DNA from: Deltaproteobacteria bacterium RIFCSPHIGHO2_02_FULL_40_28
Lineage (GTDB): Bacteria; UBA10199; 2-12-FULL-40-28
Assembly (NCBI GenBank): GCA_001798135.1
Contig: MGRJ01000031.1
Location: forward strand, 57,589 to 121,588
DNA: 64,000 nt
Direction of reading: 5' to 3'
The first letter of the stretch is position 1. Every line of letters starts with the position of its first letter. This document shows positions 2,723 to 51,139 of the stretch, piece by piece. The position numbers and the translations under genes were made by a program. The notes below the pieces were generated by a model that was given only the letters and a program-made list of their open reading frames with translations, was not told where the DNA came from and searched no databases.

Positions 2723-2819
2723 AATCCTCTATTAAAATAGACTTAAGTCTAAAAAAGTATGTACTTTTTTAGAGTATAGTCTAAAAAAGTATAGAACTCA
2801 AGGGGGTTTTTATAATTTT

Positions 2820-3590: not shown

Positions 3591-3629
3591 AATTTTATAT
3601 TGCGTAGGGGCTTACTTCTAAACCTGCCC

Positions 3630-4625: not shown

Positions 4626-4668
4626 TTATAAAGATGGATCCCCGCCTTCGCGGGGATGACATTTATGT

Positions 4669-19303: not shown

Positions 19304-22191
<2,888 letters not shown>

Positions 22192-26210: not shown

Positions 26211-26300
26211 CTTTTATGCTGGGATAGGGACTTATTCAATAAAAAACGAATATTAGTATTTTCCTCTTGAATATATTTTACTCATGAGTAAAATATACAT

Positions 26301-27443: not shown

Positions 27444-27464
27444 ACCCACCCGCTTAGGTAAGAA

Positions 27465-34141: not shown

Positions 34142-34408
34142 CCCAAAACCCTCTCATGCCCCCTAAAAAATTCTCTAAAAAATTTAAAAGTTCTGTCATT
34201 CTGAATCCGCCAAAGGCGGATGAAGAATCTCAATGCAATCAATGAGATCCTTCGTCGCCCTTTTCAGGGCTCCTCAGGATGACATTTTAAAAAATTACGC
34301 CTAAAAAACTTCTGCATTGAAGTTATCGGCAGAAAAAAAGGAAAGTTGTGGGAATTAAAAAAACATGATGCGGTGTGTTAAATGTGTGGGGGCGGGGTCA
34401 TCCCGCCC

Positions 34409-35275
34409 CTACATTATTAATTTCATTAAACTTAACACCTGCAAATCAACCTCGTATTTTCCTTGATGATGCAAAGCCAAACCCAAAAGATGATCTTGGC
34501 TTGGACGTAAAATTTGAAATTGAAATTCATCTGATTTGTAAGGAGGGGTTTTGGGGGATTTTTCCCAAATTTCTGGATTTAAGCGAACAGTAATATCACC
34601 ATTTGGTTTCAACGAAAAAACAGCATGAGCAAAAGTATAAAGCACAGGAATACCTGAAGCTTTGGTAAGAGATTCTTTGAGAACAGCGTACTGATAAAAA
34701 CGAAACATGCGATCTTCCCCTTTGCGGGATTCTACATCTTTTACTTCCTCCTCGGGCCCACCCACCATGGCCAAGCGACCCTCATCAACACGGGGTTCTT
34801 TGAGATATTCTACGTCAATGCCATGGGACACATCACCTAGGGAACAAACAACCATTTTTTTGGTGTGACTCAGGCTAACAATAGAAGATGGATCCCCGCC
34901 TTCGCGGGAATGACGAATATGTTTTTCATCCCCATCCGTAGGGGCAAACCCATGTGTTTGCCCGTTTAATGGGGTGACACATGGGTCACCCCCTACATTT
35001 AAGAGAGAAGTGTCATCCCCGCGAAGGCGGGGATCCATCTTCATTCTTGGACGCTTTCCTTCTTCCATTTCCAAATCCGGTGAAATTTTGACGCGCGCTA
35101 GGGCATGAGAGGCAAGGTATTGAGCACGAAATCCAGGATGAGTTGCTTCGTCAAAACGTTTTTGTTCAGAGGGAATTAAAGCTTCGTACAAAAACTTTTT
35201 TTCTTTTTCAGAAAAATGGTCAATGGATTCAGGAATGGGAAGCGACCAGATGGTAATTTTTTTGGTTTCATTCAT
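34409..35275 (-). CDS. Sfp/AcpT-type 4'-phosphopantetheinyl transferase with an in-frame repeat-derived insertion
   Basis: PPTase motifs HGIDVEY (G-x-D) and VLKESLTKASG (W/F-x-x-KE-S/A-x-x-K). The segment MKMDPRLRGDDTSLLNVGGDPCVTPLNGQTHGFAPTDGDEKHIRHSREGGDPSS is encoded by REP-A and family C elements at 34888-35040. Confidence 0.7.
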   Translation of the reverse strand: MNETKKITIWSLPIPESIDHFSEKEKKFLYEALIPSEQKRFDEATHPGFRAQYLASHALARVKISPDLEMEEGKRPRMKMDPRLRGDDTSLLNVGGDPCVTPLNGQTHGFAPTDGDEKHIRHSREGGDPSSIVSLSHTKKMVVCSLGDVSHGIDVEYLKEPRVDEGRLAMVGGPEEEVKDVESRKGEDRMFRFYQYAVLKESLTKASGIPVLYTFAHAVFSLKPNGDITVRLNPEIWEKSPKTPPYKSDEFQFQILRPSQDHLLGLALHHQGKYEVDLQVLSLMKLIM

Positions 35276-35407: not shown

Positions 35408-38400
35408 TTATCCCGCGGCCTTTAAGGCTGCTGCAACCACTGGAGATGCACTTCCTCGTCTCATGGCACCTGCTCGTGTTGCCATTGCTTCCATACGAGC
35501 ACTAGGACCGGCATGTTCTATCACACCTACATCTTCTAGCACTTGATCGACAGCACTTGCAGGGTCTTCGGCATCCAAGGCCATAGCTAATTGCTGCCAA
35601 TGAATATTTTCTAAACCAAGCCCTTCCATTTCATCACGGCCATAACCATGTTCTTCCAAACGAGCAAGAAGGGTTGCGCGATCCATCTCTCCAGTAGGGG
35701 CGTGATTTATCACGCCCTGTTCAGAGGGCGCAATAAATTGCGCCCCTACATGAGAGACACCTTGAACCAAGCCACTACGCAAACCAGCAACATCTGCTAA
35801 GCTAACAAGTTCTCCAGTTGCTCTAGCCGCTACTTCTCCAGGTGCAGATGGAGAACCTGGATCGCCACGTCGCTCTTCGGGCTCCTCGCGATGACCAGGG
35901 CTCGGGCCATCTCCACCATCAGGGCCACTATCTCTTCCGGGCTCTGGAGGAGGTGGAGCTTCGCGTCCATGGATTAAACGTTCAAACGTACTCTCTAATT
36001 CTTCACCCACACGTACTGTCCCCACATTTTGTGAAGCCAAGAAAATACCACCTTGCCTTCGCGTAGCATCATTAGCAGACTGGGCATTGGCAAAGGCATT
36101 AGTGACAGCTGTTCTCATCAAAGGCTTTGCAATGGCCTCTGTTAAAGTTTTATCTTTAATTTTCTCACGATAGAATTTTAATTGAGTGTCTAATTTTAAA
36201 GCTCCTGGAGTATCCATTAAACGAAGTTTGCGGCCTTCGGCATCTTCAATCACACGAACAGCTACGGAACTACCTAAAGATGGATCCCCGCCTTCGCGGG
36301 GATGACTGAGGGTAAGGGGATCACTCAGAATAGTTTTTCCACCATACTGACTTTCTTTTGAATAAAGAATGGCATCATCCAAGGCTACACCGCTAGCGCC
36401 CCAATGAAATGCGCCTTTTACATCTTCGTGGGTGGTATAGGCACCCGAAGCAATGACTGGAATTTTTGCATCATACAAAGCTTCACGAGCTTTTCGAACA
36501 ATCAGTTCGGGATCGGCATTCATGTCGCGATTTTGTTCAACGGCTTGAAGAATTTTATTAAAATTATGCCCCAAAGCTTTTTTAACAAAAGCAAAGGTGG
36601 CTCTAATTTCTGGATCCTCGGGATGGGCACGCAAGTTTTCGATAGCTCGCGCCAATACGTTTTGAGCTGCCTTCATTTGAGGAACATAACGAGCCGTTAA
36701 AACACCAATGGCCTGTCCGTCTTCACCAAAGAAGGTAACTTTCATGCGCATATCACTCGTTAAGCCATCCCACTCTGGAACCTCAGCCACTAAGGTAATT
36801 GCTTCATTGGCTTCCGGTGCACGCAAAGGAGTGTACAAATTATCTGCAGTGAATCCCCAAATTTTAAAAGCCATCATGCCTGTCCAGCCTGTTAATTCAT
36901 CAGCAGCCAGCATCATGGAATGATAACGGCTTTGACCTTCAATGGGTGTTACCCTTCCCCAAAGAGCTTTTTTTCCATCATCATAATTAAATCTAAAATG
37001 TAAGCCCGTGCCATGCTCATGCCCGGCTGCTACACAATTAGGTAAACATCCAAATTGAGCATTACTTGCAAGTTCGGCTGGATTAATTGTGCTGGCTTTA
37101 TCTTTGCTTTTAACTTTGGAAGCATCTTGGAAAGTAGCATTGGAAAGAGTTTTTTCTTCACGAGTGGCAGGCTTACCTCCTTCGGCTGGCTTATCAACAA
37201 GCTCCATCATTCTCATTTCAATGCGACCATCTGGTTTTTTCTCTACATAAATTCGAACATTGGCATTGGAAGGCGCATTCGCAATATAGCCCACGTTTCG
37301 ATGCAATTTATTAATATCAACTCTTTCGCCACCCTTCACCATGGCTTCTAAAACAGATTCAAAAATGGAATCAAGCATGCCTCCATGGGTGATACCCGTG
37401 TATCCCGCATAAGTTTCTGGAAGTTTAAAATCGACTTCGGATTTATTGGAGTAAAGTCTAAAAGAAGGAAAATCCGTTGTTTTGAATTGTAAATTAATGG
37501 GGCGAAGGGGCACAGTAGGCATCACATCCCACCTAGGATCTCTTAAGTCAGATAAATCACCAAATTTATTTTCTCCGGCCTGGTTTATATTTCCAGAAGA
37601 AATACTTCTCTCAACCACCACAGCATCAAACTTAGCCTTGGTAGTTTTTTGATTAGGTTTACCTTCGTGTTCAACCACCTTCATTTCAGTGAGTTTAATA
37701 ACCTCGGCTGCTGTATCCACCGTTTGAAAAACAGCAATGCCTACTTTATTTAAAGCAATGACTTGTTCTGTCTTAGGCAATCCCCCTCTAAACATCACGC
37801 CGCGCACTTGCTTTTCTGCAACCACTTTAAGTTGGGCTTCAAAGTTAGAGGCAGAAACATCTAAACTCACCACAAGAGGCGCTGTATTACCTACAGCGGC
37901 ATACACAGCATCAATTCTGGCCTCTAGGGTATCAGGGACCCCATTAACACCATTACCACCTTCAGTTGCTGCTTTTCTTGCAGCTCTTTCTCGTAAAACT
38001 TTTTCTGCTGCTGTTTCAGTGGCTTTTAAATTTCCTGCATCCAGGGTTCCAATGCCACCGGCATCAATAACAGCAATGGCCAAACTAGGTGTATTGACCT
38101 CTGGTGAAAAGCCACGTTGAAGCACAGGATAAGAAACACCCTTAAAGGCCTCGGGCATGGGCAACTGGGCTATCCCCTCTGCGTCATGTTTAATGCCTCT
38201 CTCTAAGGTTCTTTTTTCTTTGATGTCACCAATATGCTCAAAAGTATATTTGAGATAATCACCAGGTAAAATATCCGTCAGTAAAAGGGCCGTGTCTTCA
38301 CGAGACATTTTGCCTTCAAACTCCCTGATATCTTTACCGTTGGCCACCCAGGCTGCTTTTTCAGCTCCTAGTCTTGCTTCTAAACGAGCTTGAACTTCTT

Positions 38401-41400
38401 GAATTCTTCTGGCCACCTCGGGATAAACAGACACTTCGTGCTTATCTACAAAAACATAAATATTTTGATCATAGAGACCCCTTTCAAACTCACCTTTTAG
38501 AGCTCCCAAGAGAGCACGCACAGAAAGTTCATTCATAGATACAAATTTTGTTACCGCAGGATCAACTCCTGGTAAGACAAGAGCTCCACTTTGAATATCT
38601 TCAAAAATGCGTTTTTCAATCAAGCCCGCCAAGGTTCCACCAGGAATTGCATGTAATGCAAAAGATAAAAAAGCAGGAAAACTTAAAACACGACGTAAAC
38701 CTGTTTTAGGATCAGAAAGCCTGGGGCTTGCCAATTCTTTTTTGGTGGTCATCTTGGCGCGACCCAGAGAACCCTTGGTTTCCCAGGTAGCCCCGCCGTA
38801 CACTCCACCCAACATTCCATCCGATTCAGAACCACGCCAATCAAACCAAAAAGTTTCTGAAGCTCCAAAATGTTTGCCCCTGGCTCCTTTTAACCAACCT
38901 TGTTCATTGAATAAATCAAGCAAACGGGGATGGCTTCTGCCCATGGGAATAATGGTTGCTATTTCTTCTTCTTTTTCAGAGGCAAAATTAGGAATTTTTT
39001 TCATTTCTAATTCGCCATAGGAATTCATGCTAGGAACAGAAAGTTCGGGCTGGTAATGCGCCCTAGCAGGCAAGCCAAAGGCTACAGAGTCAAAGAAGTT
39101 TACCCCCGGGAGTAGATTTTGTTTAATCAAAGCATCAACAGTTAAACCTTTAATGTTATCCCATTGAAGCTCGGTGTCAAATTCTGTATTAACAGCGGCA
39201 AGCCAGCCCCTAGGGTCTGTAAATCCCAGTTCTTCTAACTTGGTTGTACCTTTCACCAGCACAGGGCGATTTAAAATACGAGAAGCTTTTCTAGTTAACC
39301 ATCCACGAATTTCAGCAACGGTAGGCTCAAAAGCTTTTCCAACAGCTTCAACCACTTCTTTGGGAAGAGGAGTTGGAGTACCGGTTGCTGCCGGGTGGCC
39401 CACATCAAAGGGTACGGCATTTACATTAAGCAATTGTAAGTTAACTCCATGAGTCTCCGCCAAGGCCTTCAAAACAGCAGGATTAAAGGCAGAAGCTTTT
39501 TCAACAAGTTCTTCGGGTTTAGCGGGATCAACGGGATTTGGATCACGATGCACACCCACTACTTCTTTAACCGCTCCTGATTTAATCAGCGCGATTAAGG
39601 TGCGCATACCCATGCCATCAGACATGCCGTAAAACACCATGGGACGACGATGCCAGTTTTTTTGACGAGCCAGGTGGCCCATTTCGTTTACTTCTCTTTG
39701 TCCAATGGAGTCATAAATTTCTTTTACACGGGCTTGGGCCTCGGCATATTTAATGGCATTGTGCTGAGAGCGAATAATTTCTGCATTGGCGCGTTTGTTA
39801 GTGGCGCTAGCTTGATCTGCTGTAACTTCCAAGCGTTTTACCTTCTTGTTTTCGAAATCAACCGTATACACTCTGGGGTTTACAAAATTATTCTGGGCTA
39901 AATCGGTATCCACTTCCAGCTCTACACCCTCATTTAAGGGGAATTGGTAAACCCAACTTTCGATATTGTTCCAATCCAGTTTTCTGCCTTCCAAAACAAG
40001 TGCACGAGCAATGGCATGGGAACGCAAGGTTACTTCATATTGATCACGATAGAGAGAAACGGGGGTTTCTTGATAAGTAGCCCGATTAAAAAACATTTTA
40101 CGCAAGCCCTGACGTTCGGCTCTTTTTTGAACTCTTTCTTTCGCTACTCCCTCAATGAGTTTAGCCACATAATCCACTGCAGATTCTTCGGTCTCAAAAC
40201 CCAGTTTTCCCATCACTTCAATGATGGCTGTATTTTTAGCATTAAAACCAGCAGCCTCACGAAGCACCACCCATGTTACATCGTCATCGTAGAGATCCCT
40301 TAAATTCTCGGCATGCTTATGGTGGTAAACAGTCACATTTTCTCCACCCTGTGCATGAATATTATCCAAACCAGGATCACCCGGAATACCCAAGAAACGC
40401 ATCACAAGTGGAGATAAAGCTGAATCGGAACCGGAAGAACCACCCAAGAGATGTCCCATATGGGCCTTGGTTTTAACAATGTGGGCAAACTGGGTGGGAT
40501 CTAAAATGGAAGAAAGGAAAAGACGTATGGATTCTTCCTCGTATAAATCTCCCATGGGCGTAGAAGTCTTGTGCGCCATTACAACCAGGCGTACATTTTC
40601 TTTAAGCTTACGGGTATTATCCACAAGAAAATCCACCAAATTTTTTCCCGTACGACCTTCTCCAACAGCTTTATTCCATTCTTCTTCAGTCAGTTTGGGG
40701 CCAAAACGTTCGACTAACTTATTGTAGAGAGCTTTTTGTTCGGTAAGTTTTAAACCCCACGTACTGATGGCTGTATCGGCATTAAATTCTGCTTTTGCAC
40801 GCCCTGCAGCACGCTTCCCCCTTTGAACTGCAACCATTAATTCTTGTACAATACCCGTCATTTCCTCTGGGGTATGCAACACTTCAGTTAATTTTTCTTT
40901 GGCTTGATCCCAGGCATCAAAAAGAGCCGAGCGTTGACCAATACCGTAACCTTCTCTGGCTCCCTTGTAGGCTTGTTTATCTCCATCGGTGCGGCTTTCT
41001 GCCCCTGCAATCATGGAGTAAACAGGATCTCCTGTTTTGATGGCATTAGAAAGTGGGGTAATCCCCTGACCACCACCACCCGCACCCAACACAAAACCAA
41101 AGCGTTCCATATCATCGGGACGGGAAGCCATTTTAATGGCAATATCGCGACCACGACGAACAGAATCTCTTATTGTGGCTCCAATGGCATCAAAACCAAA
41201 AATGGCGTTGAAGGTAATGGCGTAATCAACTCCACCGGCAATCCAAATTTTTGCAAAAACTTCATCCCAGTTAACATCCATTCCACTTTCTTCTCTGCGT
41301 GTTGCAGCCCAATACTCACTAAACAAATGTTTCACAGCCATCACAATGTTCATGTTTCCTGTAGAACAAGCAGCTACAACGGCTAGCGCCATCCCTTCAG

Positions 41401-44400
41401 CACCTAATTGTTCGGTAGCTACCTGACCTGTTGTTGAATCGGGAAGAAGAGCTGCCATTAAGTAGTTGGCCACGCTATCTTCTATTTGCATGGGTTTTAA
41501 GGTCATTTCATTGAAAGGCTCTAAGTCACCCAAGCCTGTACCAATGCCGACAAAAACATTTTTAGGACCAAAAACTTCATCCAACTCTTTAGGAGAGCGC
41601 CCTGCAGCCGACATCAAAATTTGGGATGTAAACATCTTGGCCATAAAGGAAGCTTTGGCCCCAGTACGAAGCTCGCTAGCGGGCACACCCATGCCTTCCC
41701 AGTCAAAACTGGTTTGACCCGGAAGATCGCCCGCAATGGTTTTAGGCAATTGAATTGTAAATTTCATGAAGTAGGTTTGGCCACCCTTGGCTAAAGCATA
41801 CAGAGAGCCATCAGGACGCCTATGAATAGCCAAACCAGCATTTTCTAGTTTTGTACGAGTAGCTGCAGGTAAATTAATTCCCTTAGCAGTATTTTCAATT
41901 TCGATTTCCTTGTCATTATCTCCAAAAGCAACTTGGCGAAGCACTTCAAATTCTTTGAAGCGACCAACTTCCTGAATACCACTATTGGCCAAAAGATGCG
42001 CTTCAACAGCATTTTGCCATGTTTTAAATTTTTCCAAAACAGCATCATCTAAACCAATGGAAGCGGCTAGTTTTTTATAATCTCCCCACTGGGAAACATC
42101 CACACCCATGGCCTTGGCCAAATTGTAAAAATCATAATTACCAAGCCAGCTATAACCCTCGTGCCCTTTAAATAAACCAGCCGCCAACATATTACGATAG
42201 TTGGCTAGGGCATCTGTTCCCAAGGGACCAACCATGCCATACCCACGCACCACAGGAGTTTCATCTTCAAAAAGGATATCGGTTTTAGGCTTGTAAGCAT
42301 AGCGACTGCTTGTTTCTCCCTTAATGGCAATGTTGATGTTATTGAGATCAACAATGGTTCCATCTAAGGGAATAAGGCTGGGATCTACTGCTGCTTTCTT
42401 TTCTTCTGCTTTTCTAGCTTTAGCTTCGGTATGTTTTATATCTTCTGTTTCTTTAACGCGCGCTTCTATCTCACCAAATTTTCCTGTTCTTAAGGCAGAC
42501 GTAAAACCATAGGTATCATCATATTCCCAAAGACCTTGAACCCGCTTGCGGGTATCTCCCTCTGGGGGTCTCAATTTACGTTTCCCAAATTTAGCAGCCA
42601 GCGCCCCCGATAAACCAACTGTTGACAGCTCATCACCTGTAAGGGTTTTAATTTTAATTCCTTCTGCTAGTGATTCAGTTTCTAGAGGTTGCGAATAATA
42701 ATCTTTGCCCGACATTAAAGTTTCTGATCTGCCATCTGATTTTCCCCAACCCGTTGTTCTAGCTACTTCCACTAAAATGGGCTTTTCTTCTTCGTCTCTA
42801 ATCCCATTGGCATAGGCCTCTGCTGCGGTTTGACCTGGAGGCAGAGCATTTTTAGTTAAGTGATAACTTTTGGAACCTGGTAGGGCCGCAGGATTTAATT
42901 CTCCCTCAAGCTCACCCAAGTTTGCTGCATTATTGGGAGTGTAGAGATTAACAAAAACAACTTTCTCCCCTGTTTTGTATTTTTGATGGAGTTTAGCCAG
43001 ACTAATGGCCATCCAACGCGTAGAAAGAGCCATCACCAAAAGAGAATCGAGTGGAGTACCACGATCGGCTAGAGAGCCATAGTCTTCACGTCCAGCTCCA
43101 TTGATGTAGAGAGTAGGGAGATGAGGCATTTGAGGTTCTACTTCTAATTCACCCTTTCTGTATTTTTCTTTATCTTCCTTGTATTGTTTTAAGTCTGCAA
43201 CATACTTCATTTCGATGTAATAAAGCAGGGCATCTTCATCAAAGCGGTTTCCGGGTTGCATATTGGGCACCACATCCATACTGGCTCCATCCGCTGCCTC
43301 GCTGTAAATATCGTAGTAAAGATCGCTGGCTACTCTGCCTTTGCGCTCGGCACTTCGGCCAGCATAATCTGTCATCATCACGTTACCACCCAATTGCATC
43401 CACTTGGAGGCATAGCCGGCTGTGATGGTTGAAGCTTGATGAATTAAGGCCACATGCCCACGCAAATCGTAACCATCCTCAAGTAAAAACTGGAGATCTT
43501 TCCCTGTTTTTTTATCGGCCATGGTGGGATCGGCTAATCTTTTCGCAGCTTCGATAGTGCCATCAGTATCTGGAACAAATTGTGATTTTTTAGCACCTCC
43601 ATAGGTGGGAACATGATTACCCGAAACGATATCGATCACCTTCCCGGTATAAATAATTCCCTCATCCAAACGATGTGCAGCTAATGTGTAGAGATGTTCC
43701 AAGGTATCAATACGTCCTTGGCGACGGGCCTTTTCTGCTGTATCCGCAGTTGCATCCCGTTTTTTGGTTTCGGCATTGATGAAACCACGCAACCAACCCA
43801 AGCGAATACTATCGATTCCATTTGCAATTTGACGCATTTCTCTTTCTTCTTGGTCCAAAAGACTTGCACGTAATGCGTCAGAAGCATCTTCGGGCATACG
43901 GGTTTCAAAAGCAGCGCTTCGCACATAACCCACAAAACGCATGAGGCGGGCTATGCCTCCATTTTGGGTTACATGATTAAAACCATACACACCCATGCCA
44001 GCACGCACGGAAGTTAAAACACCTGTCACATCTTCGGCCGTCATATCCCCGCGTAAAATTTTACGAGGATCAATGGTTTCTGTTCCCCCCTCGGTACCTC
44101 GGTAGTAAATACTATCGGCATAATGGGGTTGCATGAGGCTATCCATAAAGAAGTCGGAGGTGGAAACACGAACAGCCCCTAAACGACGTTCTGCTTCGGC
44201 TAAACGAGAAGCTTGTTCTGAATCATAAGTTGTGGGTGCGCCTTTAGCATCAAGACCCACACGGGTATCTGTGGCTTCTACTCCTCTAGCTGAAGGGGTT
44301 GCTAAAACAGCAACAGCTGCACCTCGAGCCCCTGTTGCACCTGGCGAAGCTGGTGGTGGAGAATCTCCAGCAGCCGCAGGGGCGCTGCTCGCTGCGCCCA

Positions 44401-47400
44401 CAGAAGCCAATGCTGTTTGAATGGCTTGTTGAATAAGCTTGTCTTCGTTAGAGAGAGTTGTAGTTGTTGCAACCGCTGCTGCTCCAAGCTTCACTCCTTT
44501 TTTATCTAAAAGTTTTGCAAAATCGTTAACGCTTTTTACTTTTTCCAGGTCTCCATCCGAAATGGTAATAGAATACTTGGCTTGATAGGCACTTCTAACT
44601 TCATTGATTTTATTTGTATCAAAACCAAGATCATCCGCAAAACGAGTACTGGCTTCAATAGTTTCTGATACGCTCACTAAGCTTAATTGCTTCATGGTGA
44701 GGCCAATATCATCTACTAAAGACCCTCCCCCTGCACCCCCTCCCTGAGGGAGGGGGGAAGTTTGTGCACTTCCGGTTTGAGCAGTAATTGCTGCTAATCT
44801 AGCCTCTAAACCCGACCTGGCCGAAGCTCCTAAACCTTGAAGTTGTGTTGCTAGTTGTGTTGCTAAAGCATCTAAATGAGTCCCGGCATCAATGGCTGCT
44901 CGATTAGCGGCTACAAAGGTAGAAAGGGTGGAATCAACAGATGAGACCCCTCCCCCTGCACCCTCTCCCTGAGGGAGGGGGGAAGTATTGGTCATAACAG
45001 AATTGGTAAGGGCTTGGGTAATGGCTTTTTGTTCTACCTCTTCAGCAGGAGGAAGGGTAGCAGTAGCAGCAGAAGCTACAGCAACAGTTGCAGCAAGTTT
45101 GACTCCCTTTTTTTCTAAAAGAGCAGCAAACTGATTAACTGTGGATATTTTTTCAATCTCAGAATCGGCAATGGCAATGCCATGTCTACTTTGATAGGCA
45201 TTTCTTAACTCGTTTATTTTGTTGGTATCATAACCCAAATCATCTTTAAAACGCGTACCCCCTTCTACAGCTTCTGACGCACCAATCTGACCTAATTGTT
45301 TCATGGTTACAATAACATCATCTACTAAAGACCCTCCCCCTGCACCCCCTCCCTGAGGGAGGGGGGAAGTTTGTGCATTTCCAGCTTTACCAAGCAATTC
45401 ACTTTGACGCGCTTTTAACGCATCTGCTGCACCCGCACCTAATGCAACTAATTGTCCAGATAATTGAGTAGCCAACGCATCTAAATTTTGACGCGCTTCA
45501 ATAGCAGGTTTATTGGCCCCCACAAAGGCATCAACAATGGCTTTTACTTCAGCAGGAGTTACTTGCTTGAGAGCAGAGGTACTCGAAGGTGCTACTGTAG
45601 CAATAGCTTGAGGCTGGGCTGCCACTTCATCTGCTGCTCCTCTTCGAAGATCTTCTAATGTTTCTACCTTGATTTCACCAACCGTAATATCGGGGCGGTT
45701 GACTTCAACAACGGCTGTTTCGGCACTGGCAGTTAATGCCCCAATTTCCTTGGTATTAAAAGCCTTTAAAGAGTTGGCATAAATAATTTCAATGCGTTCA
45801 TCAGGTTTAATAATTCCTTTTGCTTTCAAATATTTTACTTCTTCTTCAATAAAGGGTTTTAAGGTGCCCGCTGATTGATGATGAGAAGGCCCAATTTCAA
45901 TAAAGCGTCTTACCCCTTCTTCTAACATTTTTCGAACATTAGCCCGCCAACGCACACTACGAGCCAATTGGCCGGCCATAATTTCACCCAAAAGTTGTTT
46001 TCTTCTCTCGTTAGTTGGAGGAGAAAAATCATCCTCGGCAATCCCTTTTTCTCTTCCTATTTCACGTAAAGATTTTCCTTCAACATCCAAGTAAACATCC
46101 ACAGCTTGATCTAATTTAGCAGGATCAAAAGGAATACCATGCTGACGCATGTAAACCAAGAAATCCGCCGAAGCCATTTCCATCAAGGAGGTATGAAAAG
46201 CATTGGCAATGGGACGAATATTGAGTGTGTATCCAAATTGATCAAACAATCCCCACACACTTTCGGCTAAACGATAATACTGGGGATTTGTTGTGGGATT
46301 TTTATCAAACAAAGCCTTGTGTCCACCAATCATCCACTGTTTAGGAGAGTTATCATTGGAAAATTCAACAACAAAGGGTGGCTCAATCTCCATCTCTACA
46401 CATTGCCCCCTCACATACTCTTGCATTGCTGTCATTTGCGCTTCACTTAAAGGCTCAACCTCATCTCCCTTGGGAAACACAGCAACAAGAGCTTGCGGTC
46501 TTTCTGTATCAATGTATCGCACCTGGGAAGAACCACGCTCGTAAACAGCTTTCATGGCATCATCAGGACTTAACATTCCAGAAGCAACTAGGGTAATCCA
46601 CATGCCCAAACTATGACCTGCATAAGCGGCATCACGAGGAATCAAACCCTTTGCCTGTAGCTCTTCAAACAAAATCAAAGAGTAGGCCATGATCATGGGT
46701 TGAACTTTGGAGGTATCATCTTCAGTTTTATCAGTCTTCCCCGCTTTGCTGTTCATGGATTTAACCAGATCAACAATGGGCTCTTTTCCATCAGGAGATA
46801 ATCCAATGGAATTCACTGCAGCTTTCAACGCCTCTCTTTTGTCTGCATCAATGTAGATTCCTAAAGAATCAATGGCATCTAAAAGGGGTTGATGTCTTTG
46901 GGCTGCATCGGCCTCTAAAAGGGCTTTATACAAAACAGGCATAACCCTGGCCTGACCAGCAATTTTAGCTTCTGCCCTGGTTGGCGCTGTATACTTGTAA
47001 TGTTTTAATTCCCGTACAAGGGCGGCTTGAATCTTTCTGGCCGAAGCTGAAATTTTGGGCATGTACTCTTGAAACTGAGCCAGCCTGGCTCTTCTTGCCG
47101 GATCAGAAATGAGATGATTGCCCATATCCAGGTATTGAGAGCCCTGGCCTGTAAAAACAACGGCTGTTTTAACTCCCTTGCCTACCAAATCGTAACTCAT
47201 CACAGCTGTGCCTTGTGCATTTTTTACTACCACATGGTAGGAATCTACACCTTCGGCGGTTGCTGTACGGGTTACCTCTGGAAAAAGTTTATCCCCCATC
47301 CCCACAAAGCCCGTGTATTTAAGGTTGGCTACTCCTAGGGCATCACGCATGAGTCCCGCTCTTTGCATTTCGTTTAAAACAAATTCGTTCACATGAGCAA

Positions 47401-50400
47401 AGGTAGCCATGCCCTGCATGATGCGCCCTTGCGCAATTCCACCCGCAACAGCTGCTAAATCAGAAACATGGATGGGATTTAAATCGACAACATATTTTTC
47501 AGCTAAATCTACTGGAATGGTTAACGAACCTTTAAACACCAAACGACTTTGAGGAAGATAGGCCAAACGTTCTGAAAGATACTTGGAAGCCACCACTCCC
47601 AATTTTTTGTACTCGGCCTTTAATAAATCTCCCAAACGTTTTTGTTCAGCTTCTACTTTAGCTTTGGCATCAGCATCACCTTCTTCTGCTTTTTTAATTA
47701 ATTTTGCTAAAGTCTCAATAGCTGTAGCATGCTTACCCATAAAGGCAGCATAGGCAGCTTGTGCCTTGGCTCCATCAAAATAAGGAATGCGTTTGGGGCT
47801 TGGCCTTTCTTTTAAGTCTTCATTCCATTCATCAATGTCAGTTTTTAAATCTTTTTGATACCCTTCAATAGCTAGGCGTTCAATAGTTTGAGCCGGGCTT
47901 GCCACATTGTTATAAACTGTTCTTCCTTCTAAAAGATTAATGGCGGCATCGGGAGCTTTAAATATAACGCGCTCTGGCCCTGTACGCATGCGGGATACCA
48001 AGGAAGAATCGATCACACGTACTAATTCTTCAGTTGCACCTTTTATACGATACACTTCAGCACGCACCACTATACGCCGACCTGCCAAGCGGCCATCATT
48101 AAAATCTTCGGCTTTTAAAAGACGAGAACGAGTTACAAGAGTATCCCCCACACGAATAGGGGCTACAAAATTAAAAGTTTTCCCCTCGTCAATTACACGA
48201 GTTGGATCCATATCGAATTCTTCCATAAACATGGCGCCATCCAAGGATTGCCACATGTCGTGCGAAAGATAATGCGGATGCACTTCAAAATTTCTGGCAT
48301 GGGCATCAAGATACTTGGCTTCTGTAGACCCAATGGAGGCTGCATAATCTGTTGCCTGACGGGGCGTTAAAGGAGATGACCGCCTCTCAAAAACTGCCCC
48401 TCCTGCACCTGCTTGTTCTTTAGAAACGCTAGCCCACTCGGTTGGAATATCCCAAATTTGTCTGTAAAAAACTCTAGCTTCCTTTCGAAATTGATCCATG
48501 TTTTCTTGTTCCCAAGTAGCACCCACTTTTTTGTAATTGCGGTTTAATTCATAGTGCGTGGTGAGATCGGATGGACTAGGATAATAATACTGAACCATGT
48601 GAATTCCACCGTCTCCCCTATTAGTAACAGCAAAAGAAAGCCGACCATTTTCGTAAAAATTAATGGTTTTTACTTTTCCATTTTCAAATTGAAATTCAAT
48701 TTCATGACGCGTTTTATCTTTTTCGGGAACATTCCGAATAAAACCAAGATAGGGATTATTTTCTGGTTTTCCCTCTACCGTTATTTTTTTAGCTTTTAAA
48801 AAATCGGTGAGAACACTGTCGGGATCAATACCTAAAATACCGTTTTTATATTTTTCAAATACACTGGGATTAGTTCCATCAGATTTTTCATCCATGCGCT
48901 TGGTTGGAACAACACGAACATTTAAATAATCATCACTTCCATCTACTGTTTTAACTTGTACTTGTACTCCATCAATGGCTTTTAGTTTTCCTACAGCAGA
49001 ATCATCTGTATCTTTTTTTGTTTTAGGTATTGTTTGCAAATGAGCTTTAAGGGGATCGTTGCTTGTAGTACGAAGCCAACTTTTCATTCCATCGGCATCT
49101 TCATCAACCACTCCTAAAATATCCATGCGCTTATTAGAAAACACAGCAGGAAGGGCAGTTTTAGCATGATGGGAAGAAGGTCCTACAGTTACAGCTGAAG
49201 TAGCACCGTGGCTTGCCGCCCAACGGTATTGATGGGGCATATTGACTGGCCAATGCCATTGCTGACGACGCAAGTTTAAAGCAATATCACTCTCTGGGGT
49301 AATGGGAGTGATATTATAATTATGAATTACAGTTGAAAGATAGGGAGCTCGCAAAGGAAGGGGTGTTCCTGGTTCATAATGATTGGCTGTGGCTAGAAGC
49401 CTTTCGTGCTCTGCGGGAGCATCTGCATAAACCCTGGGATTATGGGGAGGCATGGTAAGGCCCGTTTGAGTGAGAGGATCACGCACATTGTTATTCCACG
49501 AAAAAGAAGTAACAATGGGTTTTAAGCGGGTAACTGTTGCATCATCATAACCTGTCCAATCAAAATCACGCTTAAAAATAATCATCTTGGCCAATTCTGC
49601 CAAGGCTTTTCCATGACCAATCATCAAAATAAAATGAGAACGAGTCCCATCTTTGGTTTCATCTGTATTTACATTGTTCACAGCTACATAATCATCTGTT
49701 CCTGCATAACGAGTATTAATGGCTTCAACGAGTTGCCCCAACTCACTCTCACCTGGATTAAACCAATCATAGGGGATACCCGAAACCGTCATGGTAACCA
49801 AATTATATCTTTGAAAATAAGTGTCGATGTCTTGAGGTTTGGGTGGAATTTTTTTACCTTCACCGTCCATTTTAACTAAGGGATCAAATTCTGTGGCTCC
49901 CTCTGCATTGGCATTAAAGGGTCCTTCAAAAACAGCCCCTTCCGTAACAGACCATTCGATAAAATTTTGATACGCCTGCACCGTATGGTATCCACGGAAA
50001 TCCCCATCGTTTCTAGGAATCAAGGGGCGCTCATACCCTTCTACATCAAAGGAACCACCTGCAAAGTAAGCTGCAGGCAAGCCTCCCGATTGACCTAAGA
50101 GGGCCACAAATTGACCAAAATCATACCCATGAAGTTCCATCACCCTTACCCGAAGGGCCTGAACTAAGTTAATCATGGGAAAGGCATGGCTTACACGACT
50201 GATTTCAATGTAGTTGGCATAGATTTTTTGATCGGCATCGGCCATACGACGCAATTTTTCGATATCAATGCCATGGCGTATGAAAATATCGCGCAATTCA
50301 CCATAAAGTTTTTGAGCTTCAGGATAATTTTCGATTAAAAAGTTGAGTTCATTGATGTAACCTGCCCCCTGACCTGCAAACACAGCAAAGGGCTTATCGC

Positions 50401-51139
50401 GACCATCTCGAATATCTAAGGCTCTTTGAGCCATGGGCTCTAAGCCCTGTTTTCTAATTTCATCACGAAGCCTGGTATAAACTTCCCAATCGGTTGCATT
50501 GATGGAGGCTTTTTTAAGTGCATCATCTTTTGTAGGATCAGGATCAGCCTTACCATTCATTCCAAATTCATAATCGGCACGTGCTAAAAGTTCCCAAAGG
50601 AAAAGTGTTCTTTGTCCTTCAGTTATTTCTAAAAGCTCAGCATCATGATCTAAAACTACTTCTGCTAATCCTAAAGTTTTTCCTAAATTTTTAAAACGTC
50701 CCGAAAAATAAGTGGCATAATCTCCTTCTCCTTCGGCCTGAGCTAAAATGCTATGAGCAACAGCTTCAAATTGATCACTTACATAAACCACATCCCCACC
50801 TACAGAAATTCCTTTGAAATGAAATTCGCTGGGATAAATGGGATTACCATCTTGATCAAGCCCAATAGAGCCTGTAAAGCGCTGTAAACCACGTTCGGAA
50901 ACTGGGCCCACAAACATTTCAAGCCGGCTACGCAAGGCCTCCATTTGAGATCCCTCAACAAGACCCGATCGTTCTAACTTGCTCAACATGTTACGACGCA
51001 GTAGAGAAGTTTTAGCTGCTGAAACCTCAACTAAAACTTGCCCTACTTCAGAATCTTTTAAAGGTGTTGTTCGATCACCTGATATGATCTGTGAGTAAAT
51101 AGAGGCACCGATTGCATTCGCCATACTTTCTCCGTTCAT
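35408..51139 (-). CDS. Giant (5243 aa) type I fatty-acid-synthase-like megasynthase. N to C: AT-like domain, unknown region, malonyl/acyl transferase, two ACP-like domains, reductase-like region, fungal-type ketoacyl synthase, unknown/DH-like region, NMO-type TIM-barrel enoyl-reductase-like domain
   Basis: Single uninterrupted 15.7-kb ORF. Motifs: VFAGQGAGY (AT-like, about aa 250); VVFTGQGSQ + AYAGHSLG (MPT, about aa 1400-1510); two ACP-like units FKDDLGYDTNKINEL / FADDLGFDTNKINEV (about aa 1940-2200); KS Cys VVAACSTG plus SRPDD..GFVLGAGGG and KAHMGHLLGGSSG (about aa 3050-3500); PVIASGAYTTHEDVKGAFHWGASGVALDDAIL (ER-like, about aa 4700-4940). Likely start at the Met at 51124, preceded by GGAGAA. 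Confidence 0.8.
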   Translation of the reverse strand: MNGESMANAIGASIYSQIISGDRTTPLKDSEVGQVLVEVSAAKTSLLRRNMLSKLERSGLVEGSQMEALRSRLEMFVGPVSERGLQRFTGSIGLDQDGNPIYPSEFHFKGISVGGDVVYVSDQFEAVAHSILAQAEGEGDYATYFSGRFKNLGKTLGLAEVVLDHDAELLEITEGQRTLFLWELLARADYEFGMNGKADPDPTKDDALKKASINATDWEVYTRLRDEIRKQGLEPMAQRALDIRDGRDKPFAVFAGQGAGYINELNFLIENYPEAQKLYGELRDIFIRHGIDIEKLRRMADADQKIYANYIEISRVSHAFPMINLVQALRVRVMELHGYDFGQFVALLGQSGGLPAAYFAGGSFDVEGYERPLIPRNDGDFRGYHTVQAYQNFIEWSVTEGAVFEGPFNANAEGATEFDPLVKMDGEGKKIPPKPQDIDTYFQRYNLVTMTVSGIPYDWFNPGESELGQLVEAINTRYAGTDDYVAVNNVNTDETKDGTRSHFILMIGHGKALAELAKMIIFKRDFDWTGYDDATVTRLKPIVTSFSWNNNVRDPLTQTGLTMPPHNPRVYADAPAEHERLLATANHYEPGTPLPLRAPYLSTVIHNYNITPITPESDIALNLRRQQWHWPVNMPHQYRWAASHGATSAVTVGPSSHHAKTALPAVFSNKRMDILGVVDEDADGMKSWLRTTSNDPLKAHLQTIPKTKKDTDDSAVGKLKAIDGVQVQVKTVDGSDDYLNVRVVPTKRMDEKSDGTNPSVFEKYKNGILGIDPDSVLTDFLKAKKITVEGKPENNPYLGFIRNVPEKDKTRHEIEFQFENGKVKTINFYENGRLSFAVTNRGDGGIHMVQYYYPSPSDLTTHYELNRNYKKVGATWEQENMDQFRKEARVFYRQIWDIPTEWASVSKEQAGAGGAVFERRSSPLTPRQATDYAASIGSTEAKYLDAHARNFEVHPHYLSHDMWQSLDGAMFMEEFDMDPTRVIDEGKTFNFVAPIRVGDTLVTRSRLLKAEDFNDGRLAGRRIVVRAEVYRIKGATEELVRVIDSSLVSRMRTGPERVIFKAPDAAINLLEGRTVYNNVASPAQTIERLAIEGYQKDLKTDIDEWNEDLKERPSPKRIPYFDGAKAQAAYAAFMGKHATAIETLAKLIKKAEEGDADAKAKVEAEQKRLGDLLKAEYKKLGVVASKYLSERLAYLPQSRLVFKGSLTIPVDLAEKYVVDLNPIHVSDLAAVAGGIAQGRIMQGMATFAHVNEFVLNEMQRAGLMRDALGVANLKYTGFVGMGDKLFPEVTRTATAEGVDSYHVVVKNAQGTAVMSYDLVGKGVKTAVVFTGQGSQYLDMGNHLISDPARRARLAQFQEYMPKISASARKIQAALVRELKHYKYTAPTRAEAKIAGQARVMPVLYKALLEADAAQRHQPLLDAIDSLGIYIDADKREALKAAVNSIGLSPDGKEPIVDLVKSMNSKAGKTDKTEDDTSKVQPMIMAYSLILFEELQAKGLIPRDAAYAGHSLGMWITLVASGMLSPDDAMKAVYERGSSQVRYIDTERPQALVAVFPKGDEVEPLSEAQMTAMQEYVRGQCVEMEIEPPFVVEFSNDNSPKQWMIGGHKALFDKNPTTNPQYYRLAESVWGLFDQFGYTLNIRPIANAFHTSLMEMASADFLVYMRQHGIPFDPAKLDQAVDVYLDVEGKSLREIGREKGIAEDDFSPPTNERRKQLLGEIMAGQLARSVRWRANVRKMLEEGVRRFIEIGPSHHQSAGTLKPFIEEEVKYLKAKGIIKPDERIEIIYANSLKAFNTKEIGALTASAETAVVEVNRPDITVGEIKVETLEDLRRGAADEVAAQPQAIATVAPSSTSALKQVTPAEVKAIVDAFVGANKPAIEARQNLDALATQLSGQLVALGAGAADALKARQSELLGKAGNAQTSPLPQGGGAGGGSLVDDVIVTMKQLGQIGASEAVEGGTRFKDDLGYDTNKINELRNAYQSRHGIAIADSEIEKISTVNQFAALLEKKGVKLAATVAVASAATATLPPAEEVEQKAITQALTNSVMTNTSPLPQGEGAGGGVSSVDSTLSTFVAANRAAIDAGTHLDALATQLATQLQGLGASARSGLEARLAAITAQTGSAQTSPLPQGGGAGGGSLVDDIGLTMKQLSLVSVSETIEASTRFADDLGFDTNKINEVRSAYQAKYSITISDGDLEKVKSVNDFAKLLDKKGVKLGAAAVATTTTLSNEDKLIQQAIQTALASVGAASSAPAAAGDSPPPASPGATGARGAAVAVLATPSARGVEATDTRVGLDAKGAPTTYDSEQASRLAEAERRLGAVRVSTSDFFMDSLMQPHYADSIYYRGTEGGTETIDPRKILRGDMTAEDVTGVLTSVRAGMGVYGFNHVTQNGGIARLMRFVGYVRSAAFETRMPEDASDALRASLLDQEEREMRQIANGIDSIRLGWLRGFINAETKKRDATADTAEKARRQGRIDTLEHLYTLAAHRLDEGIIYTGKVIDIVSGNHVPTYGGAKKSQFVPDTDGTIEAAKRLADPTMADKKTGKDLQFLLEDGYDLRGHVALIHQASTITAGYASKWMQLGGNVMMTDYAGRSAERKGRVASDLYYDIYSEAADGASMDVVPNMQPGNRFDEDALLYYIEMKYVADLKQYKEDKEKYRKGELEVEPQMPHLPTLYINGAGREDYGSLADRGTPLDSLLVMALSTRWMAISLAKLHQKYKTGEKVVFVNLYTPNNAANLGELEGELNPAALPGSKSYHLTKNALPPGQTAAEAYANGIRDEEEKPILVEVARTTGWGKSDGRSETLMSGKDYYSQPLETESLAEGIKIKTLTGDELSTVGLSGALAAKFGKRKLRPPEGDTRKRVQGLWEYDDTYGFTSALRTGKFGEIEARVKETEDIKHTEAKARKAEEKKAAVDPSLIPLDGTIVDLNNINIAIKGETSSRYAYKPKTDILFEDETPVVRGYGMVGPLGTDALANYRNMLAAGLFKGHEGYSWLGNYDFYNLAKAMGVDVSQWGDYKKLAASIGLDDAVLEKFKTWQNAVEAHLLANSGIQEVGRFKEFEVLRQVAFGDNDKEIEIENTAKGINLPAATRTKLENAGLAIHRRPDGSLYALAKGGQTYFMKFTIQLPKTIAGDLPGQTSFDWEGMGVPASELRTGAKASFMAKMFTSQILMSAAGRSPKELDEVFGPKNVFVGIGTGLGDLEPFNEMTLKPMQIEDSVANYLMAALLPDSTTGQVATEQLGAEGMALAVVAACSTGNMNIVMAVKHLFSEYWAATRREESGMDVNWDEVFAKIWIAGGVDYAITFNAIFGFDAIGATIRDSVRRGRDIAIKMASRPDDMERFGFVLGAGGGGQGITPLSNAIKTGDPVYSMIAGAESRTDGDKQAYKGAREGYGIGQRSALFDAWDQAKEKLTEVLHTPEEMTGIVQELMVAVQRGKRAAGRAKAEFNADTAISTWGLKLTEQKALYNKLVERFGPKLTEEEWNKAVGEGRTGKNLVDFLVDNTRKLKENVRLVVMAHKTSTPMGDLYEEESIRLFLSSILDPTQFAHIVKTKAHMGHLLGGSSGSDSALSPLVMRFLGIPGDPGLDNIHAQGGENVTVYHHKHAENLRDLYDDDVTWVVLREAAGFNAKNTAIIEVMGKLGFETEESAVDYVAKLIEGVAKERVQKRAERQGLRKMFFNRATYQETPVSLYRDQYEVTLRSHAIARALVLEGRKLDWNNIESWVYQFPLNEGVELEVDTDLAQNNFVNPRVYTVDFENKKVKRLEVTADQASATNKRANAEIIRSQHNAIKYAEAQARVKEIYDSIGQREVNEMGHLARQKNWHRRPMVFYGMSDGMGMRTLIALIKSGAVKEVVGVHRDPNPVDPAKPEELVEKASAFNPAVLKALAETHGVNLQLLNVNAVPFDVGHPAATGTPTPLPKEVVEAVGKAFEPTVAEIRGWLTRKASRILNRPVLVKGTTKLEELGFTDPRGWLAAVNTEFDTELQWDNIKGLTVDALIKQNLLPGVNFFDSVAFGLPARAHYQPELSVPSMNSYGELEMKKIPNFASEKEEEIATIIPMGRSHPRLLDLFNEQGWLKGARGKHFGASETFWFDWRGSESDGMLGGVYGGATWETKGSLGRAKMTTKKELASPRLSDPKTGLRRVLSFPAFLSFALHAIPGGTLAGLIEKRIFEDIQSGALVLPGVDPAVTKFVSMNELSVRALLGALKGEFERGLYDQNIYVFVDKHEVSVYPEVARRIQEVQARLEARLGAEKAAWVANGKDIREFEGKMSREDTALLLTDILPGDYLKYTFEHIGDIKEKRTLERGIKHDAEGIAQLPMPEAFKGVSYPVLQRGFSPEVNTPSLAIAVIDAGGIGTLDAGNLKATETAAEKVLRERAARKAATEGGNGVNGVPDTLEARIDAVYAAVGNTAPLVVSLDVSASNFEAQLKVVAEKQVRGVMFRGGLPKTEQVIALNKVGIAVFQTVDTAAEVIKLTEMKVVEHEGKPNQKTTKAKFDAVVVERSISSGNINQAGENKFGDLSDLRDPRWDVMPTVPLRPINLQFKTTDFPSFRLYSNKSEVDFKLPETYAGYTGITHGGMLDSIFESVLEAMVKGGERVDINKLHRNVGYIANAPSNANVRIYVEKKPDGRIEMRMMELVDKPAEGGKPATREEKTLSNATFQDASKVKSKDKASTINPAELASNAQFGCLPNCVAAGHEHGTGLHFRFNYDDGKKALWGRVTPIEGQSRYHSMMLAADELTGWTGMMAFKIWGFTADNLYTPLRAPEANEAITLVAEVPEWDGLTSDMRMKVTFFGEDGQAIGVLTARYVPQMKAAQNVLARAIENLRAHPEDPEIRATFAFVKKALGHNFNKILQAVEQNRDMNADPELIVRKAREALYDAKIPVIASGAYTTHEDVKGAFHWGASGVALDDAILYSKESQYGGKTILSDPLTLSHPREGGDPSLGSSVAVRVIEDAEGRKLRLMDTPGALKLDTQLKFYREKIKDKTLTEAIAKPLMRTAVTNAFANAQSANDATRRQGGIFLASQNVGTVRVGEELESTFERLIHGREAPPPPEPGRDSGPDGGDGPSPGHREEPEERRGDPGSPSAPGEVAARATGELVSLADVAGLRSGLVQGVSHVGAQFIAPSEQGVINHAPTGEMDRATLLARLEEHGYGRDEMEGLGLENIHWQQLAMALDAEDPASAVDQVLEDVGVIEHAGPSARMEAMATRAGAMRRGSASPVVAAALKAAG
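36310..37100 (-). other. Enoyl-reductase-like FMN TIM-barrel (nitronate monooxygenase fold) domain (approximate bounds)
   Basis: ...IPVIASGAYTTHEDVKGAFHWGASGVALDDAIL resembles the NMO/FAS-ER G-rich FMN-binding segment. Confidence 0.5.
40640..41990 (-). other. Ketoacyl-synthase domain, fungal/CMN FAS-I type (approximate bounds)
   Basis: Active-site Cys codon at about 41362 in AACSTG. Downstream His/Lys-His motifs. Confidence 0.6.
44500..45372 (-). other. Tandem ACP-like domains with Thr at the canonical phosphopantetheine Ser position, separated by and flanked with three in-frame family B repeat cores
   Basis: Codons gat-acc (about 45221-45235) and gat-aca (about 44601-44609) encode D-T in the DLGxD(S/T) motif. 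The flanking helices align with E. coli ACP ([25 protein letters not shown] against SRHGIAIADSEIEKISTVNQFAALL). Confidence 0.6.
46000..46970 (-). other. Malonyl/acyl transferase (MPT-like) domain of the megasynthase (approximate bounds)
   Basis: GQGSQ and GHSLG (Ser codon at about 46610) read from the translation. Confidence 0.6.

Follow-up and report, generated by a model that had tools for sequence, protein, structure and literature searches.

The 64,000-nucleotide window analysed here (contig MGRJ01000031.1, positions 57,589 to 121,588) belongs to Deltaproteobacteria bacterium RIFCSPHIGHO2_02_FULL_40_28, an uncultured groundwater bacterium represented by a metagenome-assembled genome (MAG) from Rifle groundwater. 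Its reverse strand carries an open reading frame (ORF) of 15.7 kb that encodes a megasynthase of 5,243 amino acids (aa) and has no internal stop codon. The DNA is that of a bacterial chromosome, with genes for FtsY, HisG, PurM/N, PurA, SerA, TatD and outer-membrane beta-barrel proteins in the window, and the same protein (at least 90% identity, 5,238-5,243 aa) is found on several independent contigs and assemblies. The domain order is N-terminal extension, acyl transferase (AT), meander/dehydratase (DH), malonyl/palmitoyl transferase (MPT), two acyl carrier proteins (ACP), ketoreductase (KR), ketosynthase (KS), FabV-type enoyl reductase (ER), FabK-type barrel with an inserted hotdog pair, and tail. 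We think, with a probability of roughly 70%, that this protein is an iterative and fully reducing fatty acid synthase (FAS) of type I, belonging to the fungal/CMN lineage (CMN for Corynebacterium, Mycobacterium and Nocardia), i.e. a "microbial FAS I", with a domain plan of which we found no description.

About 3,000 residues of the megasynthase have no Pfam match even at E<=5 (nine unassigned segments scanned). Single-sequence phmmer searches of the PDB gave no match for aa 1-1330 and only a marginal match to a short-chain dehydrogenase/reductase (SDR) for aa 3700-4340. Single sequences were thus insufficient, and the unassigned segments were resolved by profiles built from full-length relatives. 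These came from a HMMER search with aa 3141-4330 as the query, which covered 1.84 billion protein cluster representatives exhaustively and in which only six proteins scored below 1e-30. All relatives are metagenomic, and those that are named bear generic or single-domain names only. The full-length ones are P0003 (4,533 aa, 51% identity), P0006 (3,958 aa, 33%) and P0008 (4,395 aa, 31%), and together with the present protein all four are collinear. The fragments are P0001 and P0002 from other MAGs labelled "Deltaproteobacteria" (P0002 was found in a separate N-terminal search), P0004 from a MAG labelled Saprospiraceae, and P0005, which has 99% identity. Back-translated peptide patterns found no relative in the GTDB species genomes or metagenome contigs scanned.

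The relationship to known synthases becomes visible when the family hidden Markov model (HMM) is run against 13 canonical, approximately 3,000-aa CMN-type FAS I sequences recovered in the cluster-representative search. Residues 242-361, 545-699, 745-1769 (E ~1e-30), 2537-2720 and 2960-3688 of the megasynthase align with residues 11-142, 255-408, 956-1858, 2126-2306 and 2580-3170 of the CMN-type enzymes, respectively. By Pfam, two of these references (P0078 and P0092) consist of SAT/AT, the Fas1-AflB-like helical domain (ER region), MaoC, MPT, Fas_alpha_ACP, FAS_I_H, KR and KS; P0078 alone has an additional weak, sub-threshold meander match. The canonical ER slot is empty in the megasynthase: some 500 residues (CMN ~410-950) face only 27 residues here (aa 699 to 726), therefore the core consists of AT, meander/DH, MPT, ACP, KR and KS, and a Pfam scan of the megasynthase gave no match to PF08354, the Fas1-AflB-like helical/ER region. 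By these alignments the core is homologous to, and collinear with, CMN-type FAS I, minus the FMN-dependent ER between AT and DH. Relative to a CMN FAS of about 3,100 aa, the length is accounted for by the N-terminal extension (about +230 residues), insertions in DH, MPT and KS (about +100 each), a second ACP unit (about +200), the missing canonical ER (about -500) and a post-KS extension (about +1,540). The first-pass annotation, made from the DNA letters alone, had proposed a distinct FAS architecture, and the collinear core, the vacant slot and the long post-KS extension bear this out. The order AT-like, MPT, ACP, ACP, KS and C-terminal TIM barrel, with a separate gene for a 4'-phosphopantetheinyl transferase (PPTase), had also been read correctly.

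The individual core domains can be assigned with varying ease. The AT profile (A4, aa 1-925) has weak but consistent matches to FabD, LovB AT and MAS AT (E=2e-4 to 4e-2) and reaches M. smegmatis FAS, at its N-terminal AT, with E=0.18. The CMN AT alignment begins only at aa 242; the extension in front of it contains a WE.LAR.D block (aa 182-189) that is invariant in the family. A stretch of about 1,100 residues after the AT, which the first-pass annotation had placed properly and left as unknown, holds the FAS meander and a FAS1-type DH (FAS1_DH_region PF13452, aa 914-1013, E=7e-7; MaoC PF01575, aa 1210-1307, E=3e-11) with a lineage-specific insertion of about 100 aa at positions 1100-1200. MPT matches Acyl_transf_1 (PF00698, aa 1328-1553, E=7e-14) and TIGR00128 fabD (E=7e-20), and has an insertion at aa ~1350-1450. 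The ACPs match NCBIfam type-II-like models only, at aa ~1955-2011 and 2157-2214, and share 58% identity between the two units; Fas_alpha_ACP (PF18325) has no match in the megasynthase, while the CMN references have one. The following 900 or so residues had been described as reductase-like or unknown. The reductase part was right, and the region comprises a fungal-type KR and a pre-KS linker: a profile of aa 2290-3140 (A3) matches the KR of the fungal FAS alpha subunit (2uv8_A 670-782, E=6e-8). KS matches PF00109, PF02801 and fabF (E=3e-22), its PDB matches are FabF and CMN FAS chains, and the family HMM links it to the KS of CMN FAS at E ~1e-36, as opposed to only ~1e-7 by phmmer. It has an insertion of about 100 aa at positions 3400-3510. 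The KS cysteine, previously estimated at about aa 3259, is Cys3258, and both histidine motifs are present. In a motif check the nucleophiles and catalytic residues were found to be kept in AT, DH, MPT, KR, KS and the FabV-type domain.

The first large domain of the post-KS extension, aa 3830-4320, looks FabV-like by eye (VFYGMSDGMGMRT..., GSLGRAK). A profile of 15 sequences (A2) matches Y. pestis FabV (3zu3, residues 50-311, E=4e-8), and also FabV of Xanthomonas, Burkholderia and Vibrio and the trans-2-enoyl-CoA reductases (TER) of Treponema and Clostridium; in this profile IYWNGSIGAAK of FabV is aligned with VYGGALLGDAK of the megasynthase family. An AlphaFold model made from the A2 alignment reached a pLDDT of 79.6 and a pTM of 0.83. 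In a Foldseek search of the PDB its best 18 matches were all FabV/TER (E=9e-10 to 4e-7), with generic SDRs three orders of magnitude behind. The region has the FabV fold, i.e. an SDR core with the FabV-specific extensions. Note that the domain on its own stays below the PF12241, PF12242, PF07055 and NCBIfam FabV thresholds and gives no match. The catalytic pair of FabV, which we take to be Tyr-(X)8-Lys (Tyr235/Lys244 in Y. pestis), is aligned with a Tyr and a Lys that are near-invariant in the family. The FabV-type domain is common to all four full-length members and, judging from sequence, would be the sole enoyl reductase that every family member shares. We know of no megasynthase with an in-cis FabV-class reductase. 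Known FabV/TER proteins (3zu3, 8rcz, 4euf, 4ggo) are stand-alone members of the SDR superfamily, whereas here the domain is part of a megasynthase, has 12-18% identity to them and carries an insertion of about 70 aa. This insertion is helical (aa ~3935-4005, 39125..39337, minus strand) and occurs in this species only. The possibility that it is a third ACP was considered and ruled out: although EELGFTDP is superficially ACP-like, the motif cannot be lined up with ACP and the model confidence there is 52-75. A different insertion of about 90 aa is present slightly further along the FabV-like domain in P0001. The post-KS SDR-like domain was likewise rejected as a KR, since a fungal-type KR precedes KS and the domain that follows KS resembles FabV in particular. 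In the first-pass annotation the 1,200 residues after KS were called unknown or hotdog-like; they are mainly this reductase, which had gone unrecognised, and the hotdogs lie within the TIM barrel rather than before it.

A set of stand-alone relatives (P0009-P0020) matches the FabV-like region, and some of them give weak matches, below or near cut-off, to PF12241 and to the FabV models of NCBIfam. They form a divergent FabV-like family of bacterial proteins (400-650 aa) with a GxSDGMG start, Y-x8-K and PAFLSxAL..IPGG; many have an extra C-terminal domain and most fall under the Pfam/NCBIfam FabV cut-offs.

The second reductase-like element is a TIM barrel, which had been noted as ER-like and is indeed a PF03060 barrel near the C-terminus (54.6 bits, gathering cut-off 28). 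Single-sequence searches recover it in two pieces, at aa ~4332-4516 and ~4874-4930 (nitronate monooxygenase (NMO)/FabK), which are separated by an insert of about 320 aa (aa ~4545-4870). With this insert spliced out, a profile of the present protein, P0001 and P0003 (A7) matches S. pneumoniae FabK (SpFabK; 2z6i) over residues 6-302 with E=1.8e-24. It also matches other FabKs, NMOs (1e-14 to 1e-19) and PfaD (~2e-3), and no fungal or CMN FAS chain is among its 60 best PDB matches. The P0003 barrel matches TIGR03151 (FabK) with E=7e-26. The barrel is present in two of the four full-length members, namely this protein and P0003, and is missing from P0006 and P0008. We regard it as a separately recruited FabK-type domain that one sub-clade acquired later, and not as a relocated FAS-I ER, because it matches FabK, no FAS chain is found among the best 60 matches and two members do without it. 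His144 of SpFabK, the putative proton donor/catalytic histidine (PMC9260719), aligns with Asn4517 (SSGN) here, whereas GPGH is kept in P0001 and P0003. In the present protein the barrel is probably impaired, auxiliary or degenerate, because the His144 equivalent is Asn, ASGA stands in place of the AGGG-type loop and the hotdog pair interrupts the barrel about 40 residues past the His loop. In P0003 it may be active. Compared to stand-alone FabK (2z6i, 5gvh, 7l00), which is likewise a TIM barrel and can be aligned over nearly its full length, the domain differs by being fused and split, and by having Asn for His144 and ASGAY for AAGGI.

The insert itself is a PaaI/THEM-like hotdog pair. It is found in three of the four full-length members, as a C-terminal domain pair in P0006 and P0008 and as the barrel insert here, and is absent in P0001 and P0003. 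The profile of the insert (A5) weakly matches THEM2 (4ord, E=0.023) and SP_1851, with the HGG loop aligned. An invariant Glu lies ten residues past the His of the HGG motif, at what we take, by eye, to be the position of the catalytic Asp of THEM2. By itself the hotdog segment has no NCBIfam match. An AF2 model of aa 4320-5060 has low confidence (pLDDT 59.9), and with it Foldseek gave partial matches to THEM4, PA1618, SP_1851 and the double-hotdog thioesterase 3cjy (all at E ~1e-4), to FatA, and separately to NMO/FabK. We propose, with moderate confidence, that the insert is a chain-releasing thioesterase. It resembles PaaI, THEM2 and THEM4 in the HGG motif, the acidic residue ten positions on and the low-confidence fold-level matches, and differs from them in being a fused pseudo-dimer within a TIM barrel, with weak scores.

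Table 1. Features of the megasynthase and its neighbouring genes; positions refer to the window
Feature	Residues (aa)	Position	Strand	Evidence or remark
Whole megasynthase	5,243 codons	35408..51139	-	GenBank OGQ06633.1, deposited as "hypothetical protein"; collinear with P0003, P0006, P0008
N-terminal extension	1-230	50450..51139	-	Family-conserved; no Pfam/NCBIfam match; no counterpart in CMN FAS
Acyl (acetyl) transferase	~231-700	49040..50449	-	Elbow GQSGG (Ser351) at aa 349; FAGQGA at aa 254
Meander and FAS1-type dehydratase (double hotdog)	~726-1320	47180..48964	-	Hydratase-2 motif DLNPIH at aa 1219
MPT (malonyl/palmitoyl transferase-type AT)	~1325-1795	45755..47167	-	GHSLG at aa 1508
ACP 1	~1935-2015	45095..45337	-	NCBIfam ACP models; attachment position Thr1972, DLGYDT
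ACP 2	~2138-2218	44486..44728	-	NCBIfam ACP E=6e-13; attachment position Thr2175, DLGFDT
Helical region and fungal-type KR	~2290-2900	42440..44272	-	Ser2756/Tyr2759/Lys2763 invariant in family
Pre-KS linker domain	~2900-3139	41723..42442	-	Profile A3 runs on collinearly into 2uv8_A 1017-1190
Ketosynthase	~3140-3660	40160..41722	-	Cys3258; AHKTSTP at aa 3522; HMGH at aa 3560
Post-KS helical linker	~3661-3829	39653..40159	-	CMN FAS ends at about aa 3700; helices at start of FabV-domain model
FabV/TER-class enoyl reductase domain	~3830-4320	38180..39652	-	GMSDGMG at aa 3838; Tyr4114; Lys4129
FabK-type TIM barrel, N-terminal part	~4330-4545	37505..38152	-	PF03060 E=1.5e-14
PaaI/THEM-like hotdog pair, putative thioesterase	~4560-4865	36545..37462	-	HGG..D..FE at aa 4584
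FabK-type TIM barrel, C-terminal part	~4870-5058	35966..36532	-	ASGAY where FabK (AAGGI) and relatives (AGGGF) have AGGG-type loop
Ala/Gly/Glu/Pro-rich tail	5059-5243 (last 185)	35411..35965	-	Composition; relatives have similar low-complexity tails
Single-chain eukaryote-type acetyl-CoA carboxylase (ACC), upstream	2,791 in total	51428..59803	-	BC, BT, BCCP, full-length ACC_central (E=7e-97), CT
Sfp/HetI/AcpT-like PPTase, downstream	288 in total	34409..35275	-	PF01648 E=7e-6; weak NCBIfam PPTase matches
1,228-aa protein, downstream	1,228 in total	30455..34141	-	ClpA/ClpB-like AAA+ module at aa ~473-708; TIGR02639 E=1.5e-7 at aa 473-700

The genes for ACC, FAS, PPTase and the 1,228-aa protein are all co-directional and are separated by gaps of 288, 132 and 267 bp, in that order. 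The ACC has 36% identity to fungal ACC (E=9e-185), and its central domain is of a type described in the literature as unique to eukaryotic ACCs. A eukaryote-type ACC adjoining a FAS on a bacterial chromosome is unexpected by itself. Giant carboxyltransferase genes flank P0003 (L003:3-4226) and P0008 (L008:1-2637), and PPTase homologues adjoin P0006 and P0008, i.e. the ACC/FAS/PPTase neighbourhood recurs among the relatives. The first-pass annotation took the separate PPTase gene as a difference from CMN FAS. This does not hold, since mycobacteria, too, encode their PPTase (AcpS) apart from FAS I, in a gene of its own that lies downstream of fas (PMC6152951). The 1,228-aa protein has no Pfam match and only weak ClpB matches in the PDB, and a homologue (28% identity, E=2e-28) is encoded beside the P0008 locus (L008:22678-25746). 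It may be a conserved companion of the synthase, e.g. in assembly or quality control. Scans for promoters and terminators between the genes yielded nothing informative save for one GC-rich hairpin of 14 bp (9 G-C pairs; 34384..34414) that overlaps the PPTase stop codon and may be a terminator between the PPTase and the 1,228-aa gene. Three malic-enzyme genes are situated just downstream of P0003 (L003:19636-21747 and 26079-28186); by analogy to oleaginous eukaryotes they could be a source of NADPH for lipogenesis. The P0008 locus includes two PPTase genes and lies amid toxin-antitoxin genes (PIN, MazE/PemK, PhdYeFM, DUF433; L008:3952-6193 and 20370-21925).

On the basis of the above, the megasynthase seems to work like, and to descend from, microbial type I FAS, yet it would do so without two defining features, namely the type and position of the ER and the FAS-type Ser-ACP. 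The analysis establishes which domains are present and in what order, the vacant ER slot, the family and the neighbouring genes; what the enzyme does, its cofactors, product and assembly have to be predicted from its domains. The neighbouring single-chain ACC would provide malonyl-CoA and the neighbouring Sfp-like PPTase would arm both ACPs. AT would load the acetyl starter and MPT the malonyl units, with condensation by KS (Cys3258), ketoreduction by KR (Ser2756/Tyr2759/Lys2763), dehydration by the hydratase-2-type DH (DLNPIH) and enoyl reduction by the C-terminal FabV/TER-class domain. The finished chain would be released from the ACP by the hotdog pair, probably as a free acid; in relatives that lack the pair, off-loading would presumably proceed via MPT, like in CMN FAS.

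A simpler reading is that the protein is a CMN-type FAS I whose own FMN TIM-barrel ER was moved to the C-terminus and works there, which is what "permuted" implied in the first-pass annotation. The empty canonical slot and the PF03060 barrel near the C-terminus are in line with this, and in a 14-sequence set the barrel profile weakly touches the N-terminal part of the ER of CMN-type FAS (E=3e-4 to 0.8). However, the barrel is far closer, and over its full length, to stand-alone FabK, as the A7 profile, its best 60 PDB matches and the TIGR03151 score of P0003 show; P0006 and P0008 have no barrel yet keep the FabV-type domain; and in the present protein the barrel is split and has lost its His144 equivalent and AGGG loop. 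We therefore find a mere permutation very unlikely. A somewhat more plausible, though still unlikely, option is a specialised lipid or polyketide-like synthase that makes secondary, storage or envelope lipids beside a normal type II FAS and is not a housekeeping enzyme. Tandem ACPs (two here, three in P0003), the dedicated Sfp-type PPTase together with a hotdog thioesterase, two reductase classes, the extreme rarity and patchy taxonomy of the family (MAGs labelled Deltaproteobacteria and Saprospiraceae) and the toxin-antitoxin-rich surroundings in L008 could all be taken in this sense. On the other hand, saturated chains are to be expected of a lone module whose KR-DH-ER set is complete, and the adjoining ACC, like the malic enzymes in L003, fits bulk lipogenesis. 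The polyketide synthase (PKS)-like alternative raised earlier finds no echo in the motifs either: there is no TGGxGxxG, HxxxGxxxxP has just one match, a chance occurrence within a linker, which also ruled out a PKS-type DH, and all core domains (KS, KR, DH and MPT among them) are most like FAS I or FabF/FabD.

Several observations weigh against a working FAS I and deserve to be discussed together. The canonical phosphopantetheine position is Thr, not Ser, in both ACPs (equated with Ser36 of E. coli ACP by eye, in agreement with the NCBIfam coordinates), and is Ser in all relatives (GIDS three times in P0003, GIDS in P0006, GISS in P0008). Unless this Thr can be modified, the enzyme is dead. 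The Gly-rich dinucleotide motif of KR is degenerate (IHQASTITAG; VAGAGAIGE in P0006). In the FabV-type domain Tyr and Lys are spaced by 14 residues rather than 8, both here and in P0008, whereas P0003 has exactly x8, and the thioesterase call is built on an E value of 0.023 and a model with a pLDDT of 59.9. The Thr ACPs, the degenerate KR motif, the His to Asn change in the FabK-type barrel and the lineage-specific insertions might be seen as marks of a decaying, catalytically dead relic that no longer makes fatty acids. This we consider highly improbable. An ORF of 15.7 kb would be hard to keep free of stops without selection, the same protein recurs on independent contigs and assemblies, and the catalytic residues of AT, MPT, KS, DH, KR and FabV are all kept. 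The same Thr in both duplicated ACPs, which is present also in a strain variant (P0162), looks fixed and not like random decay. The Thr ACPs and the degenerate motif may point either to a PPTase and a cofactor site that have adapted or to loss of function, and we favour a live enzyme because the ORF is intact, recurs across assemblies and retains all other nucleophiles and catalytic residues.

It is instructive to compare the presumed FAS I with known systems. With CMN FAS I (6gjc, 4v8l) it shares the single chain, the order AT, meander/DH, MPT, ACP, KR, KS and a separate adjacent PPTase gene. It differs in having no FMN ER/Fas1-AflB-like helical region between AT and DH, in its 230-aa N-terminal extension, two type-II-like ACPs and 1,540-aa post-KS extension (FabV-type ER, FabK-type barrel and thioesterase pair), and in its very low sequence similarity. 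Fungal FAS (alpha6beta6; 2uv8) has the same KR and pre-KS linker in its alpha subunit and the same types of DH and MPT, but consists of two chains with a fused PPT and has an ER of another class in another position; fungal FAS scaffolding-domain families had no matches in the megasynthase. Tandem ACPs also occur in polyunsaturated fatty acid (PUFA) synthases (Pfa) and other iterative type I PKS/FAS, as does an ER of the NMO superfamily (PfaD), yet their domain order is different, while here the core is FAS-I-like and PKS motifs are absent; KS-CLF, FabA-type DH and PKS-type DH were not found in the megasynthase. The order also differs from that of animal-type FAS and type I PKS (KS-AT-DH-ER(MDR)-KR-ACP), and there is no MDR ER here. 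In the full-text literature we found no published description of this architecture, of a megasynthase-internal FabV-type domain or of this MAG; an "ancestral variant" listed in papers on FAS I evolution may overlap with the family.

In the usual picture, microbial type I FAS comes in two close forms, the fungal and the CMN one, which have a single type of ER and a fixed order of domains, and this picture underlies the models for the evolution of the 2-MDa barrels. A FabV-class ER past KS in a deeply diverged bacterial lineage that keeps the AT-DH-MPT-ACP-KR-KS core would suggest that the FAS I scaffold allows its ER to be swapped as a module, and reconstructions of FAS I evolution could use the family as an outgroup. 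We go one step further and suggest, only tentatively, that the family is a third functional lineage of microbial type I FAS beside the fungal and CMN ones, residing in uncultured Gram-negative bacteria, with an in-cis FabV-class ER, release by a built-in hotdog thioesterase, a three-gene "eukaryote-style" lipogenic module that includes the single-chain ACC with its central domain and, in this species, ACPs armed on Thr by a dedicated PPTase. If this is true, the three-gene module bears on the origin of the fused multienzymes ACC and FAS I, or on their transfer between bacteria and eukaryotes. Thr in place of Ser in the ACPs raises a clear and testable biochemical question, and the fused FabV-type ER and the in-cis thioesterase are offered as parts for engineering.

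Finally, paralogous AAA_14/DUF4143 ATPase genes are located in the window at 1595..2722 (minus strand) and 26301..27443 (plus strand), and another one is found near P0003 (L003:24869-26026).

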